A stretch of 64,000 nucleotides of DNA from Candidatus Bathyarchaeota archaeon (GCA_963783645.1 CAWAOH010000010.1:26818-90817); one strand, 5' to 3'. Shown: positions 28,194-38,874, counted from the first letter of the stretch. The notes: generated from the sequence alone by a model not told the origin. Made by a program: numbers and translations.

Positions 28194-28221
28194 GTATCTA
28201 GTCTATATAACGAACGTTAAA
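28194..28221 (+). promoter_or_regulatory. composite promoter/operator: GTATCTAGTCTATATAA (shared with 25429) overlapping ATATAACGAACGTTAAA (identical to 31870..31886)
   Basis: Exact 17-nt identity 28205-28221 = 31870-31886. TATA-like 'TATATAA'. It lies 73 nt upstream of ATG 28294. Confidence 0.6.
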
Positions 28222-28293
28222 GAATAGTTCCTACGGCTTCAGCATCAACGAAGACAGGTGTGACAATTAGGTTTGACGCGACCGCCATGGACA

Positions 28294-29463
28294 ATGCGCA
28301 CAGATTATTCGGAAGCGCCCATTTTCGTTTGTTGGGAAACTACCAAAGCTTGTCTTCTGGCTTGCAGACATTGCAGGGCCAAAGCGATTCGAATCAGGCA
28401 GAGCGGAGAGCTTACCCACGCGCAAGGTTTGAAACTCATCGACCAGCTCGTTGAGTTTGGAGAACCATATCCAGCACTCTTACTCACTGGTGGAGATCCG
28501 CTGATGCGTCATGATTTCTTTGAACTTATCGAATATGCAAAGAGCCTTGGGATTTACGTGGCGGTAGCCGCCAGCGTTACACCGAGGTTGAACGAGACCT
28601 CAATCTCACGCATGAGAGATCTAGGAGTAGACATTATGTCAGTGAGTCTTGACGGAGCATTACCTGAAACTCATGATCGACTCAGAGGGATAAAAGGGAC
28701 CTGGAAGGCCACTATTGATGCACTTAGAATGGCGAGAGAGTTAGGCTTGCGGACTCAGACCAACACGACGGTGATGCGGAGTAACATCAACGAACTGGCC
28801 GACATCTTTCACATCGCGAAAGACAACGGGGCAGTTGCCTGGGAGGTTTTCTTCTTAATCCGAACCGGGCGAGGCGCGTCTATGGAAAGCCTCGATGCAT
28901 GTGAATGTGAAGAAGTCATGAACTTTCTCTACGATGCTGCGCTCTATGGGATTCCCGTGAGAACAGCTGAGGGTCCAAGCTTCAGACGAGTGCGTATTGA
29001 ACGAGAAAAGACCGTCAAAGAACCTTCAGGAGAGATCTATCGCAGGCTAATTGGCAGATTGCGAATGCTTGAAGGAATACCGGGGGGTTCACCCATGTTC
29101 AAATTATCTCACACAGCGGATGGGCGAGGGATATTGTTTGTCGGTCACAGGGGCGAAGTGTATCCGAGCGGCTTTTTGCCGGTTGACTGTGGCCGTGTTC
29201 CAAAAGATAATTTGCTTGAGATCTATCGTTCTCACCTATTTTTCAGGGCATTGCGAGATCCAGCTAGCCTCAAAGGAAGGTGTGGGATTTGTGAATACAA
29301 GTCTGTGTGTGGCGGTTCGAGGTCGCGAGCTTTCGCTGAGATGAATGACCCGTTCCAGGAAGATCCTATCTGCCCATACCTTCCTGCAGGTCACGGTGCC
29401 CAACAAGATCAGACTTGCTCCACTCAGACGTCTGGGGCAATCAAAAGTATACCCAATGAGTAG
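28294..29463 (+). CDS. radical SAM / SPASM-domain enzyme (AhbD/NirJ-like clade)
   Basis: 'WETTKACLLACRHCRA' (Cx3Cx2C), 'LLLTGGDPLMRHDFFELIEYA', 'SLDGALPETHDRLRGIKG', C-terminal SPASM 'LKGRCGICEYKSVCGGSRSRAF...DPICPY'. The ORF track starts at TTG 28273. Confidence 0.8.
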   Translation: MRTDYSEAPIFVCWETTKACLLACRHCRAKAIRIRQSGELTHAQGLKLIDQLVEFGEPYPALLLTGGDPLMRHDFFELIEYAKSLGIYVAVAASVTPRLNETSISRMRDLGVDIMSVSLDGALPETHDRLRGIKGTWKATIDALRMARELGLRTQTNTTVMRSNINELADIFHIAKDNGAVAWEVFFLIRTGRGASMESLDACECEEVMNFLYDAALYGIPVRTAEGPSFRRVRIEREKTVKEPSGEIYRRLIGRLRMLEGIPGGSPMFKLSHTADGRGILFVGHRGEVYPSGFLPVDCGRVPKDNLLEIYRSHLFFRALRDPASLKGRCGICEYKSVCGGSRSRAFAEMNDPFQEDPICPYLPAGHGAQQDQTCSTQTSGAIKSIPNE

Positions 29464-29529: not shown

Positions 29530-30345
29530 TCATGAATGGAAGAGAGCTGCTCCGTAAAGCAGGAAAAAGCCGAGTAGAACTGCGAGAGATATTCGAATCC
29601 ATTGCGAATAGGTTACTTCCTTCCCATTGTTCCCTTCGAATATTGGTCTTATTACTTGCAGTATCACGGAGAGTGCTGCTCCGCCTCCCATCGCAAAGAA
29701 GTAGGAGGAATCTATCGGAACGTAATAGGCTACAGCTTCACCAATTACCGACGGAATACCAAATGCCAGCCCCACAATTACGGTCTGCCACAGTTGCTTA
29801 CGAATCGACAAGTCCTGAGTTCTTGCCAAAGCAACAAAGACTACGATCACTATTGTTGATTCAAGCAGCTTGTGTAGGACGTAGGATAGGCCTCCACCAA
29901 CTCCGCCAATTGCATCTAGCACGCTAGTTGCCTGCGTACCCGCCGCTGTTCCTCCGAACTCCAATCCTTCACCGATTCCATGAATACTCATTCCGAGGCC
30001 GACGAGCATTGCTAGGAGAAGATGGAAGATGCTGGCTTTCGCCATGCTTTGTTTTCTTGGGCTTCGTCCACCAAGCAGAGCAACCAAAAGGAAACCCGTG
30101 ATGAAGAGCACAACGAGACCTGTCTGATGGAAGCCGAAGGCATATCCGTCATTGACACCCAGCTGTACTGCATCATTCATCGTATCGAAGAAGAACCAGA
30201 ACAGCAATCCAAGAGCATAGGCAGAGAAATAGCGAGTGTTAACTTGGGTGATATTACTGAGAGCGACCACGGAAAACATCCCAATGTAGATTGGGATAAA
30301 TGTCGCTAGCACGAATTCAATGAAAGATACGCTGAACTCTATCAT
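29530..30345 (-). CDS. polytopic membrane protein, ZIP-like divalent-metal permease (weak)
   Basis: ~8 TM segments. 'SIHGIGEGLEFG' and 'VLHKLLES' resemble the H-x-x-x-E-G motifs of ZIP/ZupT TM4/TM5. Confidence 0.4.
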   Translation of the reverse strand: MIEFSVSFIEFVLATFIPIYIGMFSVVALSNITQVNTRYFSAYALGLLFWFFFDTMNDAVQLGVNDGYAFGFHQTGLVVLFITGFLLVALLGGRSPRKQSMAKASIFHLLLAMLVGLGMSIHGIGEGLEFGGTAAGTQATSVLDAIGGVGGGLSYVLHKLLESTIVIVVFVALARTQDLSIRKQLWQTVIVGLAFGIPSVIGEAVAYYVPIDSSYFFAMGGGAALSVILQVIRPIFEGNNGKEVTYSQWIRISLAVLLGFFLLYGAALFHS

Positions 30346-30523
30346 GTTTCTCGCCGTCGCGCTGACGACGTCAGGTAAATGATAGCCTTTTTGGTACAGT
30401 CAAATGAGTATTGCAAGAATTTTAGACTGACTATCTGGTCTTCTCGGACACTTTGGCCAGGCGGAACATGTAAACGTTCTTCTGTTTGCATCCACATTAG
30501 ACGATTGTTCAAGTGTCTTTTCA

Positions 30524-30994
30524 ATGATTCGCTCGAAGAAAATGATCGTAGTGAGTGTTGTGATATTGCTGGTTGTTTCCCTTATCGTTATTGCGACTGG
30601 CGGCATTTTCAACTTGACTAGTCAGGCTTCCAATGCCCCTCCGTCAATCGTGGTCACAAAATCAACTTGCGATCGGCCACCTGGGTTCATTCTCATAATT
30701 GCTGACCTTTCAGGCTTCAATGACAGCATAGGTCACGGGGCACCTCTTCATCCATGGCCAGTTATTCGCATACAGAGGGGACAAATGGTCCGGTTTGTGG
30801 TGTGCAACCATGACACGACGCAACCTCATGGTTTTGCGATAAGGTATTACCTAGATGCTGGAATAGCGATGGCTCCTGGTGACGCATATCAGATGGTCTT
30901 CCCGGCAACTGAGACAGGTACCTTTGATATATTCTGCAACATCTTCTGTACGATTCACGTTTTCATGCGTGGTCAGCTAATTGTATCAGGCTGA
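30524..30994 (+). CDS. membrane-anchored type-1 (blue) copper protein, amicyanin/halocyanin-like cupredoxin
   Basis: N-terminal TM anchor. C-terminal 'FDIFCNIFCTIHVFMRGQLIV' compares with amicyanin 'CTPHPFMRGKVVV' (C-x2-H-x2-M), and there is an upstream His in 'QPHGFAI'. Confidence 0.6.
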   Translation: MIRSKKMIVVSVVILLVVSLIVIATGGIFNLTSQASNAPPSIVVTKSTCDRPPGFILIIADLSGFNDSIGHGAPLHPWPVIRIQRGQMVRFVVCNHDTTQPHGFAIRYYLDAGIAMAPGDAYQMVFPATETGTFDIFCNIFCTIHVFMRGQLIVSG

Positions 30995-31070
30995 TCGAAT
31001 AGGGACTACTAGTACCGAAGCATGCCAAGCAAACTGGCAGCACATCAAATGAATCGATGTTACGGGACAT

Positions 31071-31760
31071 TCAACGTGGTATGGGTGAAGTGAAGTATTT
31101 GAAAAGCCAGTACGGGACTAGAAAACCTTCGAAAACGAACATCATTATCATCATCGCTAAACCAAATTGGGCCTGTTGGGTAATCGGATAGATAGAATAG
31201 AAACGATTGTACCCTGCCCCAGATGTGACAAGCAGAACAACTCCAAAGATCCCCATAGCTTTACAACCCAATATCGCCGCCATCTTACGCGTCCTTCCGC
31301 TGAGAAAACCCGCTCCAATGAAAATCAGAATCCCAGCGAAAAGAAGCGACATGTGCATAATCACATGTAATCCGAAATTAAGCAAAGCAGAATCAAGAAC
31401 TGTGGGAACGTGCCAGTAAACAATTATCAATGCAGCCACAGTCAAGCTGGGAACTCCTCCCTTGTTTAACCTGCTGTTTAGTGAACCAAAGTCAGAGATC
31501 ACTTCAACTGATAGTAATTCCTGAAGCGAATAAGCCGCCAGGACGCCAGCCAACAGGAGCAGCAGGTCAGAAAACATGATGAAGACTTCCGGCGCCACGT
31601 TGAAGTTTGCCGTCAATGCCCAGTAAAGATAGTCGATGAGCTCAAAGGGCGGAAACATGGAAATCATGAGAGCGATACTCAAGGTAAGAGCCGTCAAACC
31701 ACGGATGAATTTATGCGTGACCGCGGCGTCGCTGAACTTGTCAGACCTTGACATCGCCAA
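31071..31760 (-). CDS. membrane protein, caa3-CtaG / DUF1404-like (copper-insertion factor-like)
   Basis: Seven hydrophobic segments. 'YWHVPTVLDSALLNFGLHVIMHMSLLFAGILIF' resembles the W-H-x-P...H-x3-H core of CtaG/DUF1404 proteins. Confidence 0.45.
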   Translation of the reverse strand: MAMSRSDKFSDAAVTHKFIRGLTALTLSIALMISMFPPFELIDYLYWALTANFNVAPEVFIMFSDLLLLLAGVLAAYSLQELLSVEVISDFGSLNSRLNKGGVPSLTVAALIIVYWHVPTVLDSALLNFGLHVIMHMSLLFAGILIFIGAGFLSGRTRKMAAILGCKAMGIFGVVLLVTSGAGYNRFYSIYPITQQAQFGLAMMIMMFVFEGFLVPYWLFKYFTSPIPR

Positions 31761-31869: not shown

Positions 31870-31886
31870 ATATAACGAACGTTAAA
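31870..31886 (+). promoter_or_regulatory. ATATAACGAACGTTAAA box (identical to 28205..28221) in the CtaG-like/TetR divergent intergenic region
   Basis: Exact 17-nt identity; 33 nt upstream of ATG 31919. Confidence 0.6.
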
Positions 31887-31918: not shown

Positions 31919-32408
31919 ATGAGATATCACGGCCTCACACCCCTCTTCTCAGCAACATATTCTAGATGTAGCAAAGGCACTCTTTACGAGGAAAGGATTC
32001 TCAAATGTTTCAATACGTGATATTTGTCGAGAGGCGCGTGTGACGGCTCCTACTGTCTATTATTATTTCAAAAACAAAGAGGCCCTTTTTGAGGCGGTTG
32101 TTCGCGAAACGATAACCATGCAGAGATTCACAACTCTCCTCAGCAGTGAATGTAAGAAGGCGAAAGATCCGAGCTCGCAAATTCGAACTTTTGTTCGCGT
32201 TTATCTTTTCTCTTTCCCGAGTAAACTGATTAACACAGGACTTTACCTTCGGGGTTCAACTCAGCTTGATGCTGTAGGCGCACAAACTCTGCTCAAAGAG
32301 CTAGCACATGTTGAATCACTGCTGGTGCGAATTATTCGCGACGGAATAAGCAGCGGGGATTTTGCGAAACTGACTCGCAAATGGCTTCAGGATGCCTCCT
32401 TGGAATGA
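31919..32408 (+). CDS. TetR-family transcriptional regulator, interrupted by a 1-nt frameshift near the 5' end
   Basis: HTH 'ILDVAKALFTRKGFSNVSIRDICREARVTAPTVYYYFKNKEALF' is in frame with ORF 32040..32408 but has no start of its own. ATG 31919 joins it ('MRYHGLTPSSQQHILD') if the C4 run at 31940-31943 is shortened by one. Confidence 0.7.
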
Positions 32409-32533: not shown

Positions 32534-33451
32534 ATGCTGAAAACTCGCATACTTGTAGGCACTAGAGGAAGCCAACTTGCACTCGCGCAAACTAATCAAG
32601 TCATCGAGGAATTGAAACGGGCAGTACCGAGGCTGAAGTGTGAAGTCGTACCCATTCGAACTAAGGGCGACAATATGCATGAACTTGACACGTCCGTCGA
32701 AGGAAAAGGCATCTTTACCAAGGAAATCGAAGAGGCGTTGATCCAAGGCCGGGTCGACATTGCGGTTCACAGCATGAAGGACCTCTCCGTAGACCTGTCA
32801 GCTAACGTTACCATTGCAGCTGTCCCAAAGAGAGGAAACCCACATGATGTTCTGGTCTCGCGTGAGAAGAGGAGATTTTCACAGTTGCCATCCGGAGCGC
32901 GAGTCGGAACGAGTAGTCCGAGAAGGAAGGCGCAGCTATTGGCTGCTCGCGGAGACCTTGAAATTGTCGATATTCATGGGAATGTAGATACACGTTTCAG
33001 GAAACTTGCGAGCGGAGCTTATGACGCGATCGTAGTGGCGGCGGCGGGTCTGGAACGACTTCACCTGGATCGTAATGCCACAGAGGTTCTACCAACTAAT
33101 TTGATGCTCCCAGCAGTTGGGCAAGGTGCACTCGCAGTCCAGAGCAGAAAGGGAAATCAGGAGATTACGGAGTTGGTCATCAAGATTGATCATCCCATCA
33201 CAAGAAGCGAGATCGAGGCGGAGAGAGCTTTTGCTAAGAAGTTGGGAGCAAATTGTAGAACGCCTATAGCGGCGTACGCAAGATCTGATTCATCGAAGCT
33301 GACCATTGAAGGAATGGTTTCGTCTCCAAACGGACGAATGCTTATTCGAGGTCGATTAACTTCGAATAATCCAGATTCTAGCCAGATTGGAGAAGAACTG
33401 GCAAAAAACCTTCTAGACAAGGGAGCTGAGGCACTGTTGGAGGATTTGTGA
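32534..33451 (+). CDS. hemC: porphobilinogen deaminase (hydroxymethylbilane synthase)
   Basis: 'ILVGTRGSQLALAQTN', 'AVHSMKDL', 'VGTSSPRRKAQL', 'GNVDTR', 'GANCRTPIAAYA'. Confidence 0.9.
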   Translation: MLKTRILVGTRGSQLALAQTNQVIEELKRAVPRLKCEVVPIRTKGDNMHELDTSVEGKGIFTKEIEEALIQGRVDIAVHSMKDLSVDLSANVTIAAVPKRGNPHDVLVSREKRRFSQLPSGARVGTSSPRRKAQLLAARGDLEIVDIHGNVDTRFRKLASGAYDAIVVAAAGLERLHLDRNATEVLPTNLMLPAVGQGALAVQSRKGNQEITELVIKIDHPITRSEIEAERAFAKKLGANCRTPIAAYARSDSSKLTIEGMVSSPNGRMLIRGRLTSNNPDSSQIGEELAKNLLDKGAEALLEDL

Positions 33452-34235
33452 TGCAAGCAACCACAATGCCGCTTTCGGGTAAGCGAATACTAGTTACGCG
33501 ATCTGCAGGTCAGGCAATGAGTCTCTCGAAGAAGCTTCGGTATTTAGGAGCGATAACAATCGAAATTCCAACTATCGAAATTAGGCCTCCTCCAGATTTT
33601 GATCCAATTGACGATTCTATAAGAAATCTCAGCGGGTATGATTGGATAATATTCACGAGTGTCCATGCGGTTGATTTCTTTTTCCGACGAATGGGTATTC
33701 TACAAGTTCCTGTCTCTGCTCTAGGTCTTCTTAGAATCGCTGCAATAGGTTCGGCAACCTCATCCGCAATAGAGCGGGCTGGTAGAAAGCCTGACTATGT
33801 TCCTTCAGACTTTCTCTCTGAGCGTATCGCCATAGGTCTCGGTGAGTTACGGGGGAAGCGTGTTCTGCTGCCTCGGGCTGATATTGCCTCTAAGAATTTA
33901 CCGCTTCTATTGCGTGACAAAGGGGCATCTGTAGATGAGATCGTGGCCTACGAGACTGTCCCACCGCAAAATTGAACTTCGATAGATTGAGGGTAGTCCT
34001 CAATTCAGGTGTAGATATAGTGACTTTCACGAGCCCCTCGACAGTACGTAATTTTGCAAATGCAGTCGGACATACAGATGTCGGGAGATTTTTGAGTAAC
34101 GCAAGGGTAGTTTGCATTGGACCCGTTACAGCTGAAGCAGCGAGAGATCTAGGTATAAATGTGAATGTCGTTGCGAGACCTCACACAATAGATGCATTGG
34201 TGGAGGCAATTGTAAGTGACATCAGAAATCTATGA
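33448..34235 (+). CDS. hemD: uroporphyrinogen-III synthase, interrupted by a 1-nt frameshift (33448..33975 + 33972..34235)
   Basis: 'GKRILVTRSAGQA', 'DWIIFTSVHAV', 'VDIVTFTSPSTVRNF'. The frames rejoin ('ETVPPQKLNFDRL') if the A4 run at 33968-33971 is lengthened by one. Confidence 0.8.
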
Positions 34236-35226
34236 AACCTCGAACAGGTTCACATTCACGCAGAGACCGCGTCGACTACGACGATTAGAGGCTCTGCGTC
34301 GTCTTGTAAGAGAAACGAGGTTGTCAAGTTCTGATCTGGTGTATCCAATGTTTGTTGACGCTAGGATTAGCTCGCGAGAACCGATTCCTCCAATGCCAGG
34401 TATCTACAAATTTGCTCTCTCCGAATTAGAGGAAGAGGCATCCGAAATCGCATCGTTGAAGATACCTGCAATTCTACTTTTCGGACTACCAGAGAACAAG
34501 GACCCGATGGCAAGCGAAGCCTACGCAGCCAATGGGATCGTGCAACAAGCGATACACCTCATAAAGAAATCCGCGCCTGAACTGGTGGTAATATCTGATG
34601 TTTGTCTTTGTCAGTACACTGACCATGGTCATTGCGGACTTGTGAGAGACGGGACAATAGACAATGATGAGTCTTTAGAACTTCTCTCGAAAATCGCTGT
34701 CTCACATGCAAAGGCAGGCGCTGACATTGTGGGACCAAGCGCGATGATGGATGGCCAGGTCAAAGCGATCCGAAATGGATTAGATGAAAGTGAGCTGAGT
34801 GACACAGCAATCATGGCATATTCAGCTAAATTCGCTTCGTCGTTTTACGGACCTTTCAGAGAAGCAGCAGAGTCAACCCCTCTCTGGGGAGACAGGCGCA
34901 CATACCAAATGGATCCCGCGAACAAAAAGGAAGCCATTCGTGAAATCGGTTTGGATATTGAGGAGGGTGCGGATATCGTGATGGTAAAGCCTGCTCTAGG
35001 ATATCTTGACATACTAAGTCAAGCCAGAAGCCAATTCAATACACCACTCGCAGCGTTCAATGTGAGCGGAGAATATGCCATGATCAAAGCTGCAGGAGGG
35101 AGAGGATGGATAGATGAAAGAGCAGTCGCGATGGAAGTACTAACTTCAATCAAGCGTGCTGGTGCAGACATCATAATAACGTATTTCGCGAAAACGACTG
35201 CCCGCCAATTGCAGGAACGAACATGA
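34216..35226 (+). CDS. hemB: porphobilinogen synthase (ALA dehydratase), Zn-type
   Basis: 'RPRRLRR', 'LVYPMFV', Cys triad 'DVCLCQYTDHGHCG', 'VMVKPALGYLDI', 'VSGEYAMIKAA'. Confidence 0.9.
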   Translation: MTSEIYETSNRFTFTQRPRRLRRLEALRRLVRETRLSSSDLVYPMFVDARISSREPIPPMPGIYKFALSELEEEASEIASLKIPAILLFGLPENKDPMASEAYAANGIVQQAIHLIKKSAPELVVISDVCLCQYTDHGHCGLVRDGTIDNDESLELLSKIAVSHAKAGADIVGPSAMMDGQVKAIRNGLDESELSDTAIMAYSAKFASSFYGPFREAAESTPLWGDRRTYQMDPANKKEAIREIGLDIEEGADIVMVKPALGYLDILSQARSQFNTPLAAFNVSGEYAMIKAAGGRGWIDERAVAMEVLTSIKRAGADIIITYFAKTTARQLQERT

Positions 35227-35948
35227 TGAAAACCCAGGTATCATCATTGCCAAATCAGGTTCAAGCTACTGAGCGGGAATTCCTGAAATACACCTTCTTC
35301 AAGGTCGATCCGCAATGGAGACGGCTAGACGAAAGCCAAAGGAAGGCGAGCAAAGAGCAATTTGCTCTACTCGTGGAGGATTTCGGGAAAAACAATCTTG
35401 TTAAACCATATTCTCTCGTAGGTATCCGTGGCGATGCTGACTTTCTCCTTTGGAACATCAGCAGAGGTCTGGAAGAACTTCGATCATTCATCTCTAAACT
35501 TCTGAAATCAGAACTCGGGAAATATCTGACTCTGCCCTATTCGTATCTCGCCATTACTCGGAAGTCAGAGTATTTGGGGAGCCATGAGCACGCTGGACAA
35601 GATGGAGTAACTTTACAGCTTCCAGGAGGTTCTAGATACCTCTTCGTTTATCCTTTCATAAAGAAACGCAAGTGGTATTTCTTGCCTCATGAAGAAAGAA
35701 CATTGATGATGACGCATCATTTCAAGATTGGACACAAATATCCGTCAGTAAGAATCCACACCGGATACTCCTTCGGACTCGATGACCAAGAATTTGTACT
35801 AGCTTTCGAGACGGACGAACCTACAGATTTCTCAGAACTTGTAATGGAGTTGAGAGGCAGCGAAGCTAGTCGATACACGGCGCTTGAAACGCCAATATTC
35901 ACATGTGTACAGATGAAGGTTAGAGAGATTCTGGATCTGCTCGGTTAA
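35223..35948 (+). CDS. hemQ: chlorite-dismutase-family protein, coproheme decarboxylase-like (HemQ/ChdC)
   Basis: 'YTFFKVDPQWRRL', 'ADFLLWNIS', 'YLFVYPFIKKRKWYFLP', 'HFKIGHKYP', plus its position inside the heme cluster. Confidence 0.75.
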   Translation: MMKTQVSSLPNQVQATEREFLKYTFFKVDPQWRRLDESQRKASKEQFALLVEDFGKNNLVKPYSLVGIRGDADFLLWNISRGLEELRSFISKLLKSELGKYLTLPYSYLAITRKSEYLGSHEHAGQDGVTLQLPGGSRYLFVYPFIKKRKWYFLPHEERTLMMTHHFKIGHKYPSVRIHTGYSFGLDDQEFVLAFETDEPTDFSELVMELRGSEASRYTALETPIFTCVQMKVREILDLLG

Positions 35949-35967: not shown

Positions 35968-36246
35968 TTGAAGATCAAGAATTCCAAGGAGCTCTACGAG
36001 AGGGCGTCAAATACTCTCGTCGGAGGAGCTGACAGTCCAGTCAGCGTCTTCAGAGCCGTTGGGGGAACTCCTCTATTTATTCGAAGAGCTCACGGGTCAA
36101 AGATTGAAGACGAAGACGGAAACTCTTACATTGATTTCGTTTGTTCATGGGGAGCGGTAATTCTCGGCTCGGCTCATCCTAAGCTGTGCGCTAAGGCTGC
36201 GAAAGGCGGATTTCGAATGGTAAGGACTAAAGGCGCTAACAGTTGA
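35968..36246 (+). pseudogene. hemL: glutamate-1-semialdehyde 2,1-aminomutase, N-terminal ~75-80 residues only
   Basis: 'LVGGADSPVSVFRAVGGTPLFIRRAHGSKIEDEDGNSYIDFVCSWGAVILGSAHPKL' matches the HemL N-terminus. The reading frame ends after 92 codons, overlapping the hemE start, whereas full-length HemL is ~430 aa. Confidence 0.7.
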
Positions 36247-37277
36247 ATGACCGATTCATCAAGGCATGTCGCAGAGAGAGATCTGACGGTACTCCTGTCT
36301 GGTTCATGCGTCAAGCTGGACGCTTTCTACCGGAATATAGGAAGATACGAGAAAAGCACAGTCTGATGGACATTTGCAAGGACCCTGATTTATGCGCGGA
36401 AGTCTCAACGCTACCAGTTGACGTCCTAGACGTCGATGCAGCCATACTGTTTGCTGATATCATGCTCCCATTGGAAGGCATGGGTGTCAAATTCGAAATC
36501 ACTGATGGAGTTGGCCCAGTTATCCTGAGTTCACTGAACGACTTTCAAAGCGTGAACTCATTAACCAATCTGGATCCTGATTCTGATGTACCTTTTGTCA
36601 TGGAAGCAATTTCTGCAACAAAGAAGAAGCTCGACTCGCGCGTACCATTGATCGGATTCTGTGGAGCACCATTCACACTAGCGAGTTACCTGATCGAAGG
36701 ACATGCAACAAGGGATTATGTCGAAACTAAGAAACTAATGTACAAGGACCCCAAGACTTGGCATCTATTGATGGACAAGCTTTCAACTTCGATGGGGCTT
36801 TACTTGAGAGCCCAAGTGAACGCAGGCGTCGATGCCGTTCAGTTATTTGACAGTTGGGTTGGCTGCCTAAGCCCCTCGGATTATCACAAGTATGCACTAC
36901 CCTATTCACGTAGAGTATTCAGTTATCTTAAGGACCTGACGACTCCTTGTATTCATTTTGGGACCGGAACCGCTGCCATACTGGACGATATGAAACAGGC
37001 TGGAGGCGATGTTTTCAGCATTGATTGGCGGATTCCAATAGATGTTGCATGGCAAAAGCTAGGATATGATGTAGCCATTCAAGGGAACCTGGACCCAGCT
37101 GTGCTTTTGGCGGATAGCAACTTAGTCAAAGCTCAAGTTGCTGACATCTTGATGAGAGTCGGAAACAAGCCAGGACATATCTTCAACCTAGGCCACGGGA
37201 TACTGCCGGACACGCCACAAGACAATGTCAGACAAGTCGTGGAGTTTGTTCATGAACAGACTAAAGCGAGAGCTTAG
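36243..37277 (+). CDS. hemE: uroporphyrinogen decarboxylase
   Basis: 'NDRFIKACRRERSDGTPVWFMRQAGRFLPEYR', 'FDSW', 'NLGHGI'. TTG start overlapping the hemL-stub stop. Confidence 0.9.
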   Translation: MNDRFIKACRRERSDGTPVWFMRQAGRFLPEYRKIREKHSLMDICKDPDLCAEVSTLPVDVLDVDAAILFADIMLPLEGMGVKFEITDGVGPVILSSLNDFQSVNSLTNLDPDSDVPFVMEAISATKKKLDSRVPLIGFCGAPFTLASYLIEGHATRDYVETKKLMYKDPKTWHLLMDKLSTSMGLYLRAQVNAGVDAVQLFDSWVGCLSPSDYHKYALPYSRRVFSYLKDLTTPCIHFGTGTAAILDDMKQAGGDVFSIDWRIPIDVAWQKLGYDVAIQGNLDPAVLLADSNLVKAQVADILMRVGNKPGHIFNLGHGILPDTPQDNVRQVVEFVHEQTKARA

Positions 37278-37280
37278 GAC

Positions 37281-38201
37281 ATGTCATCAGATTTTGATCA
37301 TGCTGCGATTCTTCTAATGGCATATGGAACACCGTTGTCAGAGGACGAAATAGAACCCTATCTTGCTGATATCCGGCGAGGTCGAAAACCTACCTTAGGG
37401 CAAGTCGAGGATCTGAAGAGACGCTATAGGGAAATTGGAGGGTATTCGCCACTTCTGGAAATCACAAAAGCTCAAGCATTCGAACTGGAGCAGCAACTTC
37501 ACTCGAAGAGGATTCGAGTGCAGGTTTACCACGGAATGAAGCATTGGCACCCATACATCTCAGAGACGGTGCAGGAGATTTTGAAGGTTGGAGTTCACAG
37601 GATTGTGGGTTTGGTACTTGCGCCTCATTATTCGCGCATGAGTATTGGTGGGTACAGAGAGTCACTTCAAATGGCTCTTATGAATTCGAAGAATATTCGG
37701 GTCGACTTCGTGGAAAGCTGGTACGATAATTCACTCTTTCAAGATGCCGTGGCGGAGAAAGTGAGTAATGCATTTGAGAAGTTCCCACCAGACGCGGATA
37801 TCTACGTCCTTTTTACTGCACATAGTCTACCGGAGCGAATAATCGCCGAGGGTGATCCTTATCCTATCCAGCTTCTTGAGTCCTGCAAGGCAGTTGCGAG
37901 ACTCACTAATATCGAAAGATGGTCATTCGCATACCAAAGTGCTGGTCAAACAGGAGAAAAATGGTTAGGACCTGATATTCTAGAGGTATTGGGAAAGATT
38001 GCCGCCAAGTCGAACGTGCTTGTGGTCCCTATTGGATTTGTTACTGATCATCTCGAGATTCTCTACGATATCGATGTGGAAGCTCAGGCATTAGCAGAAT
38101 CTCATAAAATCATCCTGCATCGTACCGAGTCCTTGAACACCAGTCCCAAGTTCATAGCCGCTTTGGCTGACATAGTCGGCAATCAGCTAACTTCAATCTA
38201 A
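37281..38201 (+). CDS. hemH: ferrochelatase (coproporphyrin ferrochelatase-like)
   Basis: 'AILLMAYGTP', 'GGYSPL', 'FTAHSLPE', 'VVPIGFVTDHLEILYDID'. Confidence 0.85.
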   Translation: MSSDFDHAAILLMAYGTPLSEDEIEPYLADIRRGRKPTLGQVEDLKRRYREIGGYSPLLEITKAQAFELEQQLHSKRIRVQVYHGMKHWHPYISETVQEILKVGVHRIVGLVLAPHYSRMSIGGYRESLQMALMNSKNIRVDFVESWYDNSLFQDAVAEKVSNAFEKFPPDADIYVLFTAHSLPERIIAEGDPYPIQLLESCKAVARLTNIERWSFAYQSAGQTGEKWLGPDILEVLGKIAAKSNVLVVPIGFVTDHLEILYDIDVEAQALAESHKIILHRTESLNTSPKFIAALADIVGNQLTSI

Positions 38202-38550: not shown

Positions 38551-38874
38551 TTAGAGAGGCATATCGTATTCATCTATGTACAGACTCGTCATACTGCTGG
38601 CGAATTTGTATGTGTCTTCTTGGGTAATCCGCCCTTCGGGTGATGCAAAAGCCATCTTCATGCTTTCAACGTTGTCAAACCACAGTTCGAGTACTCCGTG
38701 ATAGTCGGGCTCGCGGTTTAGTGGTTTCTTCACGACATTTACTACGTACTTTCTTACACCCGGCATCTTCTTTACCAGCGGAGCGTGAATACGCAGCCAA
38801 TACCGAGTAAATTCCTCATCAGTCAGGTTATCATTCTTGATCAGCAAAACCATAAGTTTGAACAAATCAGACAC
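38551..38874 (-). CDS. EthD-domain protein
   Basis: 'LTDEEFTRYWLRIHAPLVKKMPGVRKYVVN' and overall size (~105 aa) fit the EthD family. Confidence 0.65.
   Translation of the reverse strand: MSDLFKLMVLLIKNDNLTDEEFTRYWLRIHAPLVKKMPGVRKYVVNVVKKPLNREPDYHGVLELWFDNVESMKMAFASPEGRITQEDTYKFASSMTSLYIDEYDMPL

Follow-up and report, generated by a model that had tools for sequence, protein, structure and literature searches.

AhbD homologues in Gram-positive bacteria that use the coproporphyrin-dependent (CPD) heme route were reportedly noted by Dailey and co-workers by genome comparison, and the AhbD of non-methanogenic archaea (Aeropyrum pernix, Pyrobaculum, Sulfolobus and haloarchaea) is said to be treated in Storbeck 2010 and Fix 2023. 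The CPD route and the siroheme-dependent (Ahb) route meet only at coproheme (Fe-coproporphyrin III), and turning coproheme into heme b is their sole common step (PMC13564367). In Gram-positive bacteria an AhbD-like gene occurs together with hemE, hemY, hemH and hemQ and without other Ahb genes, and it was proposed as an anaerobic alternative to ChdC (PMC13564367, PMC5095920), an alternative called "yet unknown" in one recent paper (PMC10965808). Here we analyse a radical S-adenosylmethionine (SAM) gene of the family TIGR04053 next to a heme cluster in a 64,000-nt stretch of DNA from a Candidatus Bathyarchaeota archaeon (GCA_963783645.1 CAWAOH010000010.1:26818-90817), below called the window. 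We consider its product likely to be a heme b synthase of AhbD type, in the subtype lacking the auxiliary cluster AuxI, which would act as the anaerobic partner of HemQ.

In non-methanogenic archaea (Aeropyrum, Sulfolobus, Pyrobaculum, Halorubrum) the AhbDs miss four SPASM cysteines, three of which are replaced by Glu, Ser and Ser, and the model of the Aeropyrum AhbD displays two additional peripheral helices (Fix et al. 2023, PMC10452713). In Haloferax volcanii, deletion of ahbD impaired only anaerobic growth and was rescued by protoheme, and deletion of pitA, which has a ChdC domain, impaired aerobic growth (Kosugi et al. 2017, PMC5746218).

Family placement of the radical SAM protein

The radical SAM gene (28273..29463, + strand) is an intact open reading frame (ORF) running from TTG 28273 or ATG 28294 to 29463; from the TTG it encodes 396 aa. 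Its product, of the AuxI-less AhbD type, is predicted to decarboxylate coproheme to heme b independently of O2. The original prediction gave the bounds 28294-29463; the ORF stands, but the true start is probably the TTG, as the motif MT(R/K)PPWT, encoded only from this codon, is conserved in homologues. Residues are nevertheless counted from ATG 28294 below.

The only Pfam domain recovered in the protein was Radical_SAM (PF04055, 82.6 bits). The NCBIfam profile TIGR04053 was matched with 464.4 bits (cut-off 395) over positions 2-366 of 366, whereas the canonical AhbD profile TIGR04545 reached 273.3 bits, under its cut-off of 500. After TIGR04053 the best profiles were, in order, AhbD, NirJ2 (191 bits, cut-off 500), NirJ (171 bits, cut-off 515), NirJ1 (154 bits, cut-off 650) and AhbC (145 bits), all below their cut-offs. 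None of the peptide-maturase profiles, whose cut-offs range over 265-725 bits, gave more than 106 bits, with PqqE at 103 (cut-off 381) and MftC at 106 (cut-off 265). In a tree of 101 rows, the protein was placed inside the TIGR04053 clade with 100 % support in the Shimodaira-Hasegawa-like approximate likelihood ratio test (SH-aLRT) versus AhbD-like outgroups. TIGR04053 is the sister family of the canonical AhbD family TIGR04545. The likeness to the AhbC/AhbD/NirJ group noticed originally is thus borne out by profiles and phylogeny, which keep the protein in the AhbD/NirJ group and not with the maturases PqqE and MftC. As to AhbD itself, the protein is of the AuxI-less TIGR04053 type and not the TIGR04545 equivalog.

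The protein is 46-49 % identical to the TIGR04053 members of Thermoprotei and about 33-36 % identical to the full-SPASM AhbDs. The Bathyarchaeia proteins form a clade of 12 rows (99 % support), which groups with those of peat and fen Spirochaetia and of Thermoplasmata (20 rows, 99 %), apart from the actinobacterial/Bacillota clade and the Thermoprotei clades. The host, labelled G000 (other genomes and loci are given by G and L numbers), is a metagenome-assembled genome (MAG) of 20 contigs and 1.59 Mb that is 76 % complete, and the named genomes closest to it are Bathyarchaeia MAGs from soil and peat. It carries one TIGR04053/AhbD-like gene, and a second NirJ/AhbC-like radical SAM gene was not found in this incomplete assembly. 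No nir genes were present among the neighbours of the window gene. A literature search retrieved no paper naming TIGR04053.

Cysteine motifs and predicted structure

The window protein was aligned to its relatives and to AhbD-like sequences from other Bathyarchaeia. The CX3CX2C motif announced by the original prediction is C20/C24/C27 and is invariant in the 21 aligned sequences. Its C-terminal SPASM cluster is there only in half. The CX2CX5C...C motif of the auxiliary cluster AuxII (C330/C333/C339/C360, with C339-X20-C360) is invariant across TIGR04053, but the four AuxI cysteines, the other half of the eight-cysteine SPASM motif, are absent from the family members. Three of the AuxI positions hold the invariant residues E206, S292 (in YPSGF) and S342 (in GGSR). 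The full SPASM motif, for which we required 7-8 conserved cysteines arranged as CX9-15GX4C, gap, CX2CX5CX3C, gap, C, was not present in the protein, and Pfam SPASM (PF13186) was not matched.

Compared to AhbD-like sequences, TIGR04053 contains a roughly 30-residue insert that folds into the helices 227-240 and 247-260 in the AlphaFold2 model (mean predicted local distance difference test score, pLDDT, 86). The nearest solved folds are SPASM/Twitch proteins, namely PqqE, SkfB, BlsE, CteB, anSME and SuiB. A sequence search of the PDB recovered no solved structure of AhbD or TIGR04053, the top match being PqqE with 60 bits. Following Fix et al., the AhbD of non-methanogenic archaea is recognised by CX3CX2C together with CX2CX5CX20-38C, by the change of AuxI cysteines to Glu/Ser/Ser and by extra peripheral helices (PMC10452713), and the window protein displays every one of these features. 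Judged by sequence, the AuxI-less AhbD of non-methanogenic archaea matches NCBIfam TIGR04053.

Gene order and the operator box

The start of hemC lies 3.07 kb downstream of the radical SAM gene and is followed by hemD, hemB, hemQ, a hemL stub, hemE and hemH, which agrees with the cluster hemC-D-B-Q-E-H at 3 kb described originally; HemQ belongs to the Chlor_dismutase family. In relatives with 70-73 % identical proteins (L011/L012, L053, L055, L058, L065), the radical SAM gene heads one operon, rSAM-TetR-hemC-hemD-hemB-hemQ-hemE-hemH (rSAM, radical SAM gene), with a gap of 9 bp between the first two genes. A lineage-specific insert of three genes between the radical SAM gene and the TetR gene splits this operon in the window.

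A promoter/operator box of 17 nt, ATATAACGAACGTTAAA, is located 5' of the radical SAM gene (28205..28221, + strand), and a second copy is located 5' of the TetR-hem unit (31870..31886, + strand). These are the only two copies in the 1.59-Mb assembly. The radical SAM and TetR genes do carry the same box, as was claimed. The box consists of a TATA-like ATATAA and then a perfect 5-2-5 palindrome, TAACG-AA-CGTTA (28208-28219). In ten related loci the box TATATAACGAACGTTAAA is kept 5' of the radical SAM gene while the flanks diverge; it is identical in L007, L011, L052, L053, L055-L058 and L065, and has one mismatch in L009. The second box before TetR was seen in the window, in L009 and probably in L052, loci with an interrupted operon or with a contig that stops just after the radical SAM gene. 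Such conservation is a phylogenetic footprint of a putative shared promoter/operator. The TetR-family regulator of the cluster is the candidate binder and probably recognises the palindromic TAACGAACGTTA box. Of the co-regulation with heme and copper genes suggested originally, the conserved shared operator supports the part on the heme genes and not that on the copper genes, which belong to the lineage-specific insert.

One cluster deviates in its gene content. The locus L007:9968-15028 reads rSAM-hemC-hemD-hemE-hemH; this cluster contains no TetR, hemB or hemQ but retains the operator box. It is close to the window (86 % identity in the radical SAM protein, 88 % in SerRS) and may represent a natural hemQ-less state.

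Heme-route genes and the pairing with HemQ

The CPD genes found in the window are hemQ/chdC, encoding a coproheme decarboxylase of the Chlor_dismutase family (35223..35948, + strand; PF06778, 187.7 bits), hemE, encoding uroporphyrinogen decarboxylase (36243..37277, + strand; URO-D, 428 bits), and hemH, encoding a ferrochelatase, presumably of the coproporphyrin type (37281..38201, + strand; Ferrochelatase, 274 bits). CgoX and CgoN are not among them. CgoX/HemY was detected over cut-off in none of the 12 lineage genomes with hemE/hemH/hemQ-type clusters (G000, its sisters G317, G324 and G330, and the rSAM-bearing G337-G344), and CgoN in none of the four genomes checked (G000, G317, G324, G330).

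The original prediction proposed a search for ahbA/B/C and siroheme genes. We found neither ahbA/B (PF17805) nor an ahbC-like gene nor SUMT (TIGR01469) in the 76 % complete G000, which does not show the gene set of the Ahb pathway; ahbAB is also absent from seven of the eight related rSAM-bearing genomes. Since none of these genes was found in G000, coproheme would have to come via the hemE/hemH route. In the phylum sample of 301 genomes, only G000 had a strong ferrochelatase match (G252 had a weak one, 40 bits), and within its family ferrochelatase was found in no more than four of the seven genomes. For these reasons the hemE/hemH/hemQ set looks acquired.

The HemQ of the window looks intact. 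Its best solved relatives are coproheme decarboxylases, and the tyrosine of the VYPF motif and the proximal histidine, which we take to be the catalytic residues of ChdC, both align. A Cld/HemQ-family gene was present in 15 of the 16 other TIGR04053-bearing genomes with CPD genes. The radical SAM enzyme thus usually occurs together with HemQ, which fits an oxic/anoxic pair and not a replacement.

In the Spirochaetia relatives (L059 and three genomes) we recovered only a weak, half-length Chlor_dismutase match of about 45 bits, belonging to a divergent HemQ-like protein. In L059, from a Spirochaetaceae MAG, the HemQ-like gene (L059:7614-7922) ends a hemE-hemH-cgoX-hemL cluster opposite the radical SAM gene.

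The family in two heme pathways

We surveyed TIGR04053 in the phylum sample of 301 genomes and in a named-genome sample of 80 loci, in which heme genes were counted within 5 kb. In the phylum, 57 of the 301 genomes had TIGR04053 over cut-off and 48 of these 57 also had ahbAB; TIGR04545 was over cut-off in none of the 301. Heme genes were located near the TIGR04053 gene in 44 of the 80 loci, 32 of CPD type, 11 of Ahb type and none of both.

The CPD-type contexts with cgoX, hemE, hemH or hemQ come from Actinomycetota, Spirochaetia, Ktedonobacteria, Thermoplasmata and Bathyarchaeia. Examples are Cryobacterium (cgoX-rSAM-hemH), a Ktedonobacteria MAG (hemQ-hemE-hemCDBL-rSAM), Planktophila (hemE-rSAM, a convergent cgoX, then hemQ-hemH) and Thermoplasmatales (hemH-hemE adjoining the radical SAM gene). 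In Thermoprotei the TIGR04053 gene often adjoins ahbAB, an AhbC/NirJ1-like radical SAM gene and sirC. As the AhbC-like enzyme is a separate protein there, TIGR04053 is the sole candidate for the AhbD step in these clusters. H. volcanii has a TIGR04053 match with E <= 1e-125 and no TIGR04545 match over cut-off.

Several phylum genomes show other combinations. Eight genomes of the families f36 and f21 (e.g. G098, G145, G114, G285) have TIGR04053 over cut-off without ahbAB or ferrochelatase, and G114 and G285 also carry HemQ. In the family f13, all 43 genomes have a fused ahbAB and a HemQ-like gene no more than about 2 kb apart (e.g. G269:C1:453396-456246), and none of the 43 has an AhbC/AhbD/TIGR04053-like radical SAM match at E <= 1e-30. 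The siroheme route of f13 looks as if it ended in HemQ without a recognisable AhbC.

Proposed function and alternative explanations

The reading of the gene as an AhbD-type heme b synthase builds on what was observed, that is the family membership, the motif pattern, the conserved operon with its operator and the context in two pathways. We infer the substrate and the chemistry by analogy to characterised AhbD. The [4Fe-4S] cluster bound by CX3CX2C would cleave SAM reductively, and the resulting 5'-deoxyadenosyl radical would take hydrogen from the propionates of rings A and B of coproheme. Oxidative decarboxylation would turn each propionate to vinyl and give heme b without O2 or H2O2, and the electron would be handed on via the remaining C-terminal [4Fe-4S] cluster (AuxII). 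Coproheme itself would be supplied by the bacterial-type route with hemE, a coproporphyrinogen oxidase and hemH, and not from siroheme. We further infer an oxic/anoxic division of labour, in which the radical SAM enzyme would serve as the anoxic counterpart to the peroxide-dependent HemQ/ChdC of the same cluster, and binding by TetR, the probable ligand of the palindromic operator over a TATA-like element that would control both transcription units. The oxygen-independent last heme step put forward by the original prediction is in line with family, phylogeny, two-pathway context, shared operator and the genetics of H. volcanii.

Several points weigh against this assignment. The characterised enzymes are full-SPASM AhbDs only (M. 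barkeri, Desulfovibrio), and the function of TIGR04053 in the CPD context is assigned by analogy to them. When AuxI was removed from the M. barkeri AhbD, the substrate was consumed and the monovinyl intermediate formed but the assay yielded no heme (PMC10452713); a naturally AuxI-less enzyme must therefore work somewhat differently. As HemQ looks intact, the radical SAM enzyme would not be needed under oxic conditions, and it is apparently accessory, since the three sister genomes of the same family, G317, G324 and G330, have hemQ-hemE-hemH and lack the radical SAM gene. Given the completeness of the MAG, ahbA/B and SUMT are not proven absent and cgoX counts as 'not found' only. The TIGR04053 match of H. 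volcanii, the only AhbD-like candidate seen there, may or may not be the deleted HVO_2144.

The missing oxidase raises the question of whether the substrate could be metal-free, so that the enzyme would convert coproporphyrinogen III to protoporphyrinogen IX like HemN or stand in for CgoX/CgoN. The negative searches for CgoX in the 12 lineage genomes and for CgoN in four of them are compatible with this, and the CPD operon context alone cannot separate coproheme from coproporphyrinogen. However, the sisters with hemQ-hemE-hemH and no radical SAM gene are also without CgoX, which makes the missing oxidase a problem of its own. The radical SAM gene of Actinomycetota and Spirochaetia adjoins a HemY/CgoX-type gene, so it does not replace that gene there. 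Moreover, the Thermoprotei members reside in siroheme-route clusters with iron-bound substrates only, and we saw no protoporphyrinogen oxidase for the step after a HemN-like reaction. We regard a metal-free substrate as unlikely, and the radical SAM enzyme as a substitute for the missing CgoX was mostly rejected, given the sisters without either gene and the bacterial relatives that pair both. It is quite improbable that the AuxI-less enzyme acts on a metal-free porphyrinogen, or otherwise offsets the missing CgoX, instead of being a simple HemQ backup; if true, this would mean a new activity in the AhbD/NirJ group and a variant of the oxygen-independent coproporphyrin route.

The enzyme could also modify another tetrapyrrole in a NirJ-like, AhbC-like or novel way, for example by making, instead of heme b, a modified heme for the terminal oxidase. 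Substrates have diverged within the NirJ/AhbC/AhbD group, TIGR04053 differs from the assayed AhbDs in having lost AuxI, and with HemQ in nearly all holders the radical SAM enzyme is never obviously essential for heme b. We still find this doubtful, because the NirJ, NirJ1, NirJ2 and AhbC profiles stayed far under their cut-offs, no ahbAB or SUMT was found that would supply didecarboxysiroheme, and the separate AhbC-like enzyme of Thermoprotei leaves the AhbD role to TIGR04053. The rescue of the H. volcanii ahbD mutant by protoheme (PMC5746218) also speaks for heme b. The last option, a SPASM maturase acting on a precursor peptide that went unrecognised, had been named as the alternative in the original prediction. 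The fold and the sequence do resemble those of PqqE, SkfB, CteB and SuiB. However, the maturase profiles scored low, there is no AuxI site, the place of peptide binding in some maturases, heme genes are the conserved neighbours, and no conserved small ORF lies alongside, as the radical SAM gene abuts TetR or hemC in relatives. This option is extremely unlikely and was rejected on profile scores and gene context.

A probable AuxI-less heme b synthase beside HemQ matters for the CPD route, in which an O2-independent alternative to ChdC was proposed from genome comparison and is not known to have been demonstrated biochemically, and for which TIGR04053 is an obvious candidate. The locus adds an archaeal case with the candidate and ChdC in one operator-controlled cluster, and its relatives stem from soils, among them peat and fen, in which oxygen levels may vary. 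The database labels for TIGR04053 are only generic, although the family is readable as AhbD. The practical gain is a better annotation and no new kind of system.

Other genes of the locus

The insert between the radical SAM gene and TetR consists of three genes. The first encodes a multi-pass membrane protein of 271 aa with no Pfam match (29530..30345, - strand), the second a cupredoxin-like secreted protein (30524..30994, + strand; Cupredoxin_1, 28.8 bits) and the third a DUF1404 membrane protein (31071..31760, - strand; PF07185, 38.7 bits). L009 contains DUF1404 and a 61-aa remnant of the membrane-protein gene between the radical SAM gene and TetR. No trace of the membrane-protein gene was found at the orthologous position in L011 and L053, and the cupredoxin gene is absent at this position in L009, L011 and L053. 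The insert genes (29530-31760) may form a copper-handling cassette.

The TetR-family regulator (31919..32408, + strand) matches Pfam TetR_N and TetR_C_24 on the ORF 32040-32408, and its frame is broken near 31940 at a CCCC run, as read by eye; the orthologues are 167-200 aa long and intact in L009 and L011. It is followed by hemC, encoding porphobilinogen deaminase (32534..33451, + strand), whose orthologues carry Pfam Porphobil_deam, and by hemD for uroporphyrinogen III synthase (33448..34235, + strand), which appears as two overlapping ORFs split near 33972; L009 and L011 each have one undivided HEM4 gene for it, coding for 260-262 aa. The TetR and hem genes are thus present as originally described, but TetR and hemD are frame-broken in the assembly. 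The next gene is hemB, encoding 5-aminolevulinic acid (ALA) dehydratase (34216..35226, + strand). Between hemQ and hemE lies a hemL remnant, a class-III aminotransferase stub of 92 aa (35968..36246, + strand) with Pfam Aminotran_3 over 46 residues; in L054 this position is taken by a full-length hemL, about 430 aa long, and in L057 by a 72 %-identical match.

A small EthD-like protein of the dimeric alpha/beta-barrel family is encoded just 3' of hemH (38551-38874, - strand). The gene is kept at the same position in L011, L058 and L065 and is a candidate for an accessory role in the cluster. Elsewhere in the genome, we identified heme-copper oxidase subunit I (COX1) split over two frames (G000:C14:38570-39884), and ARAGORN predicted 2 tRNAs. 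The frame breaks in TetR, hemD and COX1 seem likelier to be assembly indels than pseudogenes; the orthologues of these genes are intact, as is the radical SAM gene itself.

Comparison with known systems

The closest described protein is the AuxI-less archaeal AhbD, with which the window protein shares the family, the cysteine pattern, the Glu/Ser/Ser replacements and the extra helical insert. Unlike these archaeal AhbDs, which are encoded in siroheme clusters with ahbAB, an ahbC-like gene and sirC, the window gene heads hemC-D-B-hemQ-hemE-hemH. The canonical AhbD (TIGR04545; Methanosarcina barkeri, Desulfovibrio vulgaris; EC 1.3.98.6) is similar in overall fold and in the proposed substrate and chemistry, but it has the full eight-cysteine SPASM motif and two auxiliary clusters.

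H. volcanii, with AhbD (HVO_2144) and PitA, is likewise an archaeon with both ChdC- and AhbD-type enzymes for making heme b from coproheme. Its aerobic/anaerobic division of labour is known from genetics, and there is a palindromic regulator site in the ahbD promoter. In contrast to the window, H. volcanii obtains coproheme from siroheme, its two genes are not in one operon, ahbD is located among denitrification genes and PitA is fused to an ABM-like domain, whereas the window pair belongs to one TetR-associated cluster that would be fed by hemE and hemH. With respect to the Gram-positive cases, the window differs in its archaeal host (Bathyarchaeia), in a cluster without cgoX and in a radical SAM clade shared with Spirochaetia and Thermoplasmata. 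The locus is an archaeal example of an already known type, and its annotation is sound but fairly ordinary.

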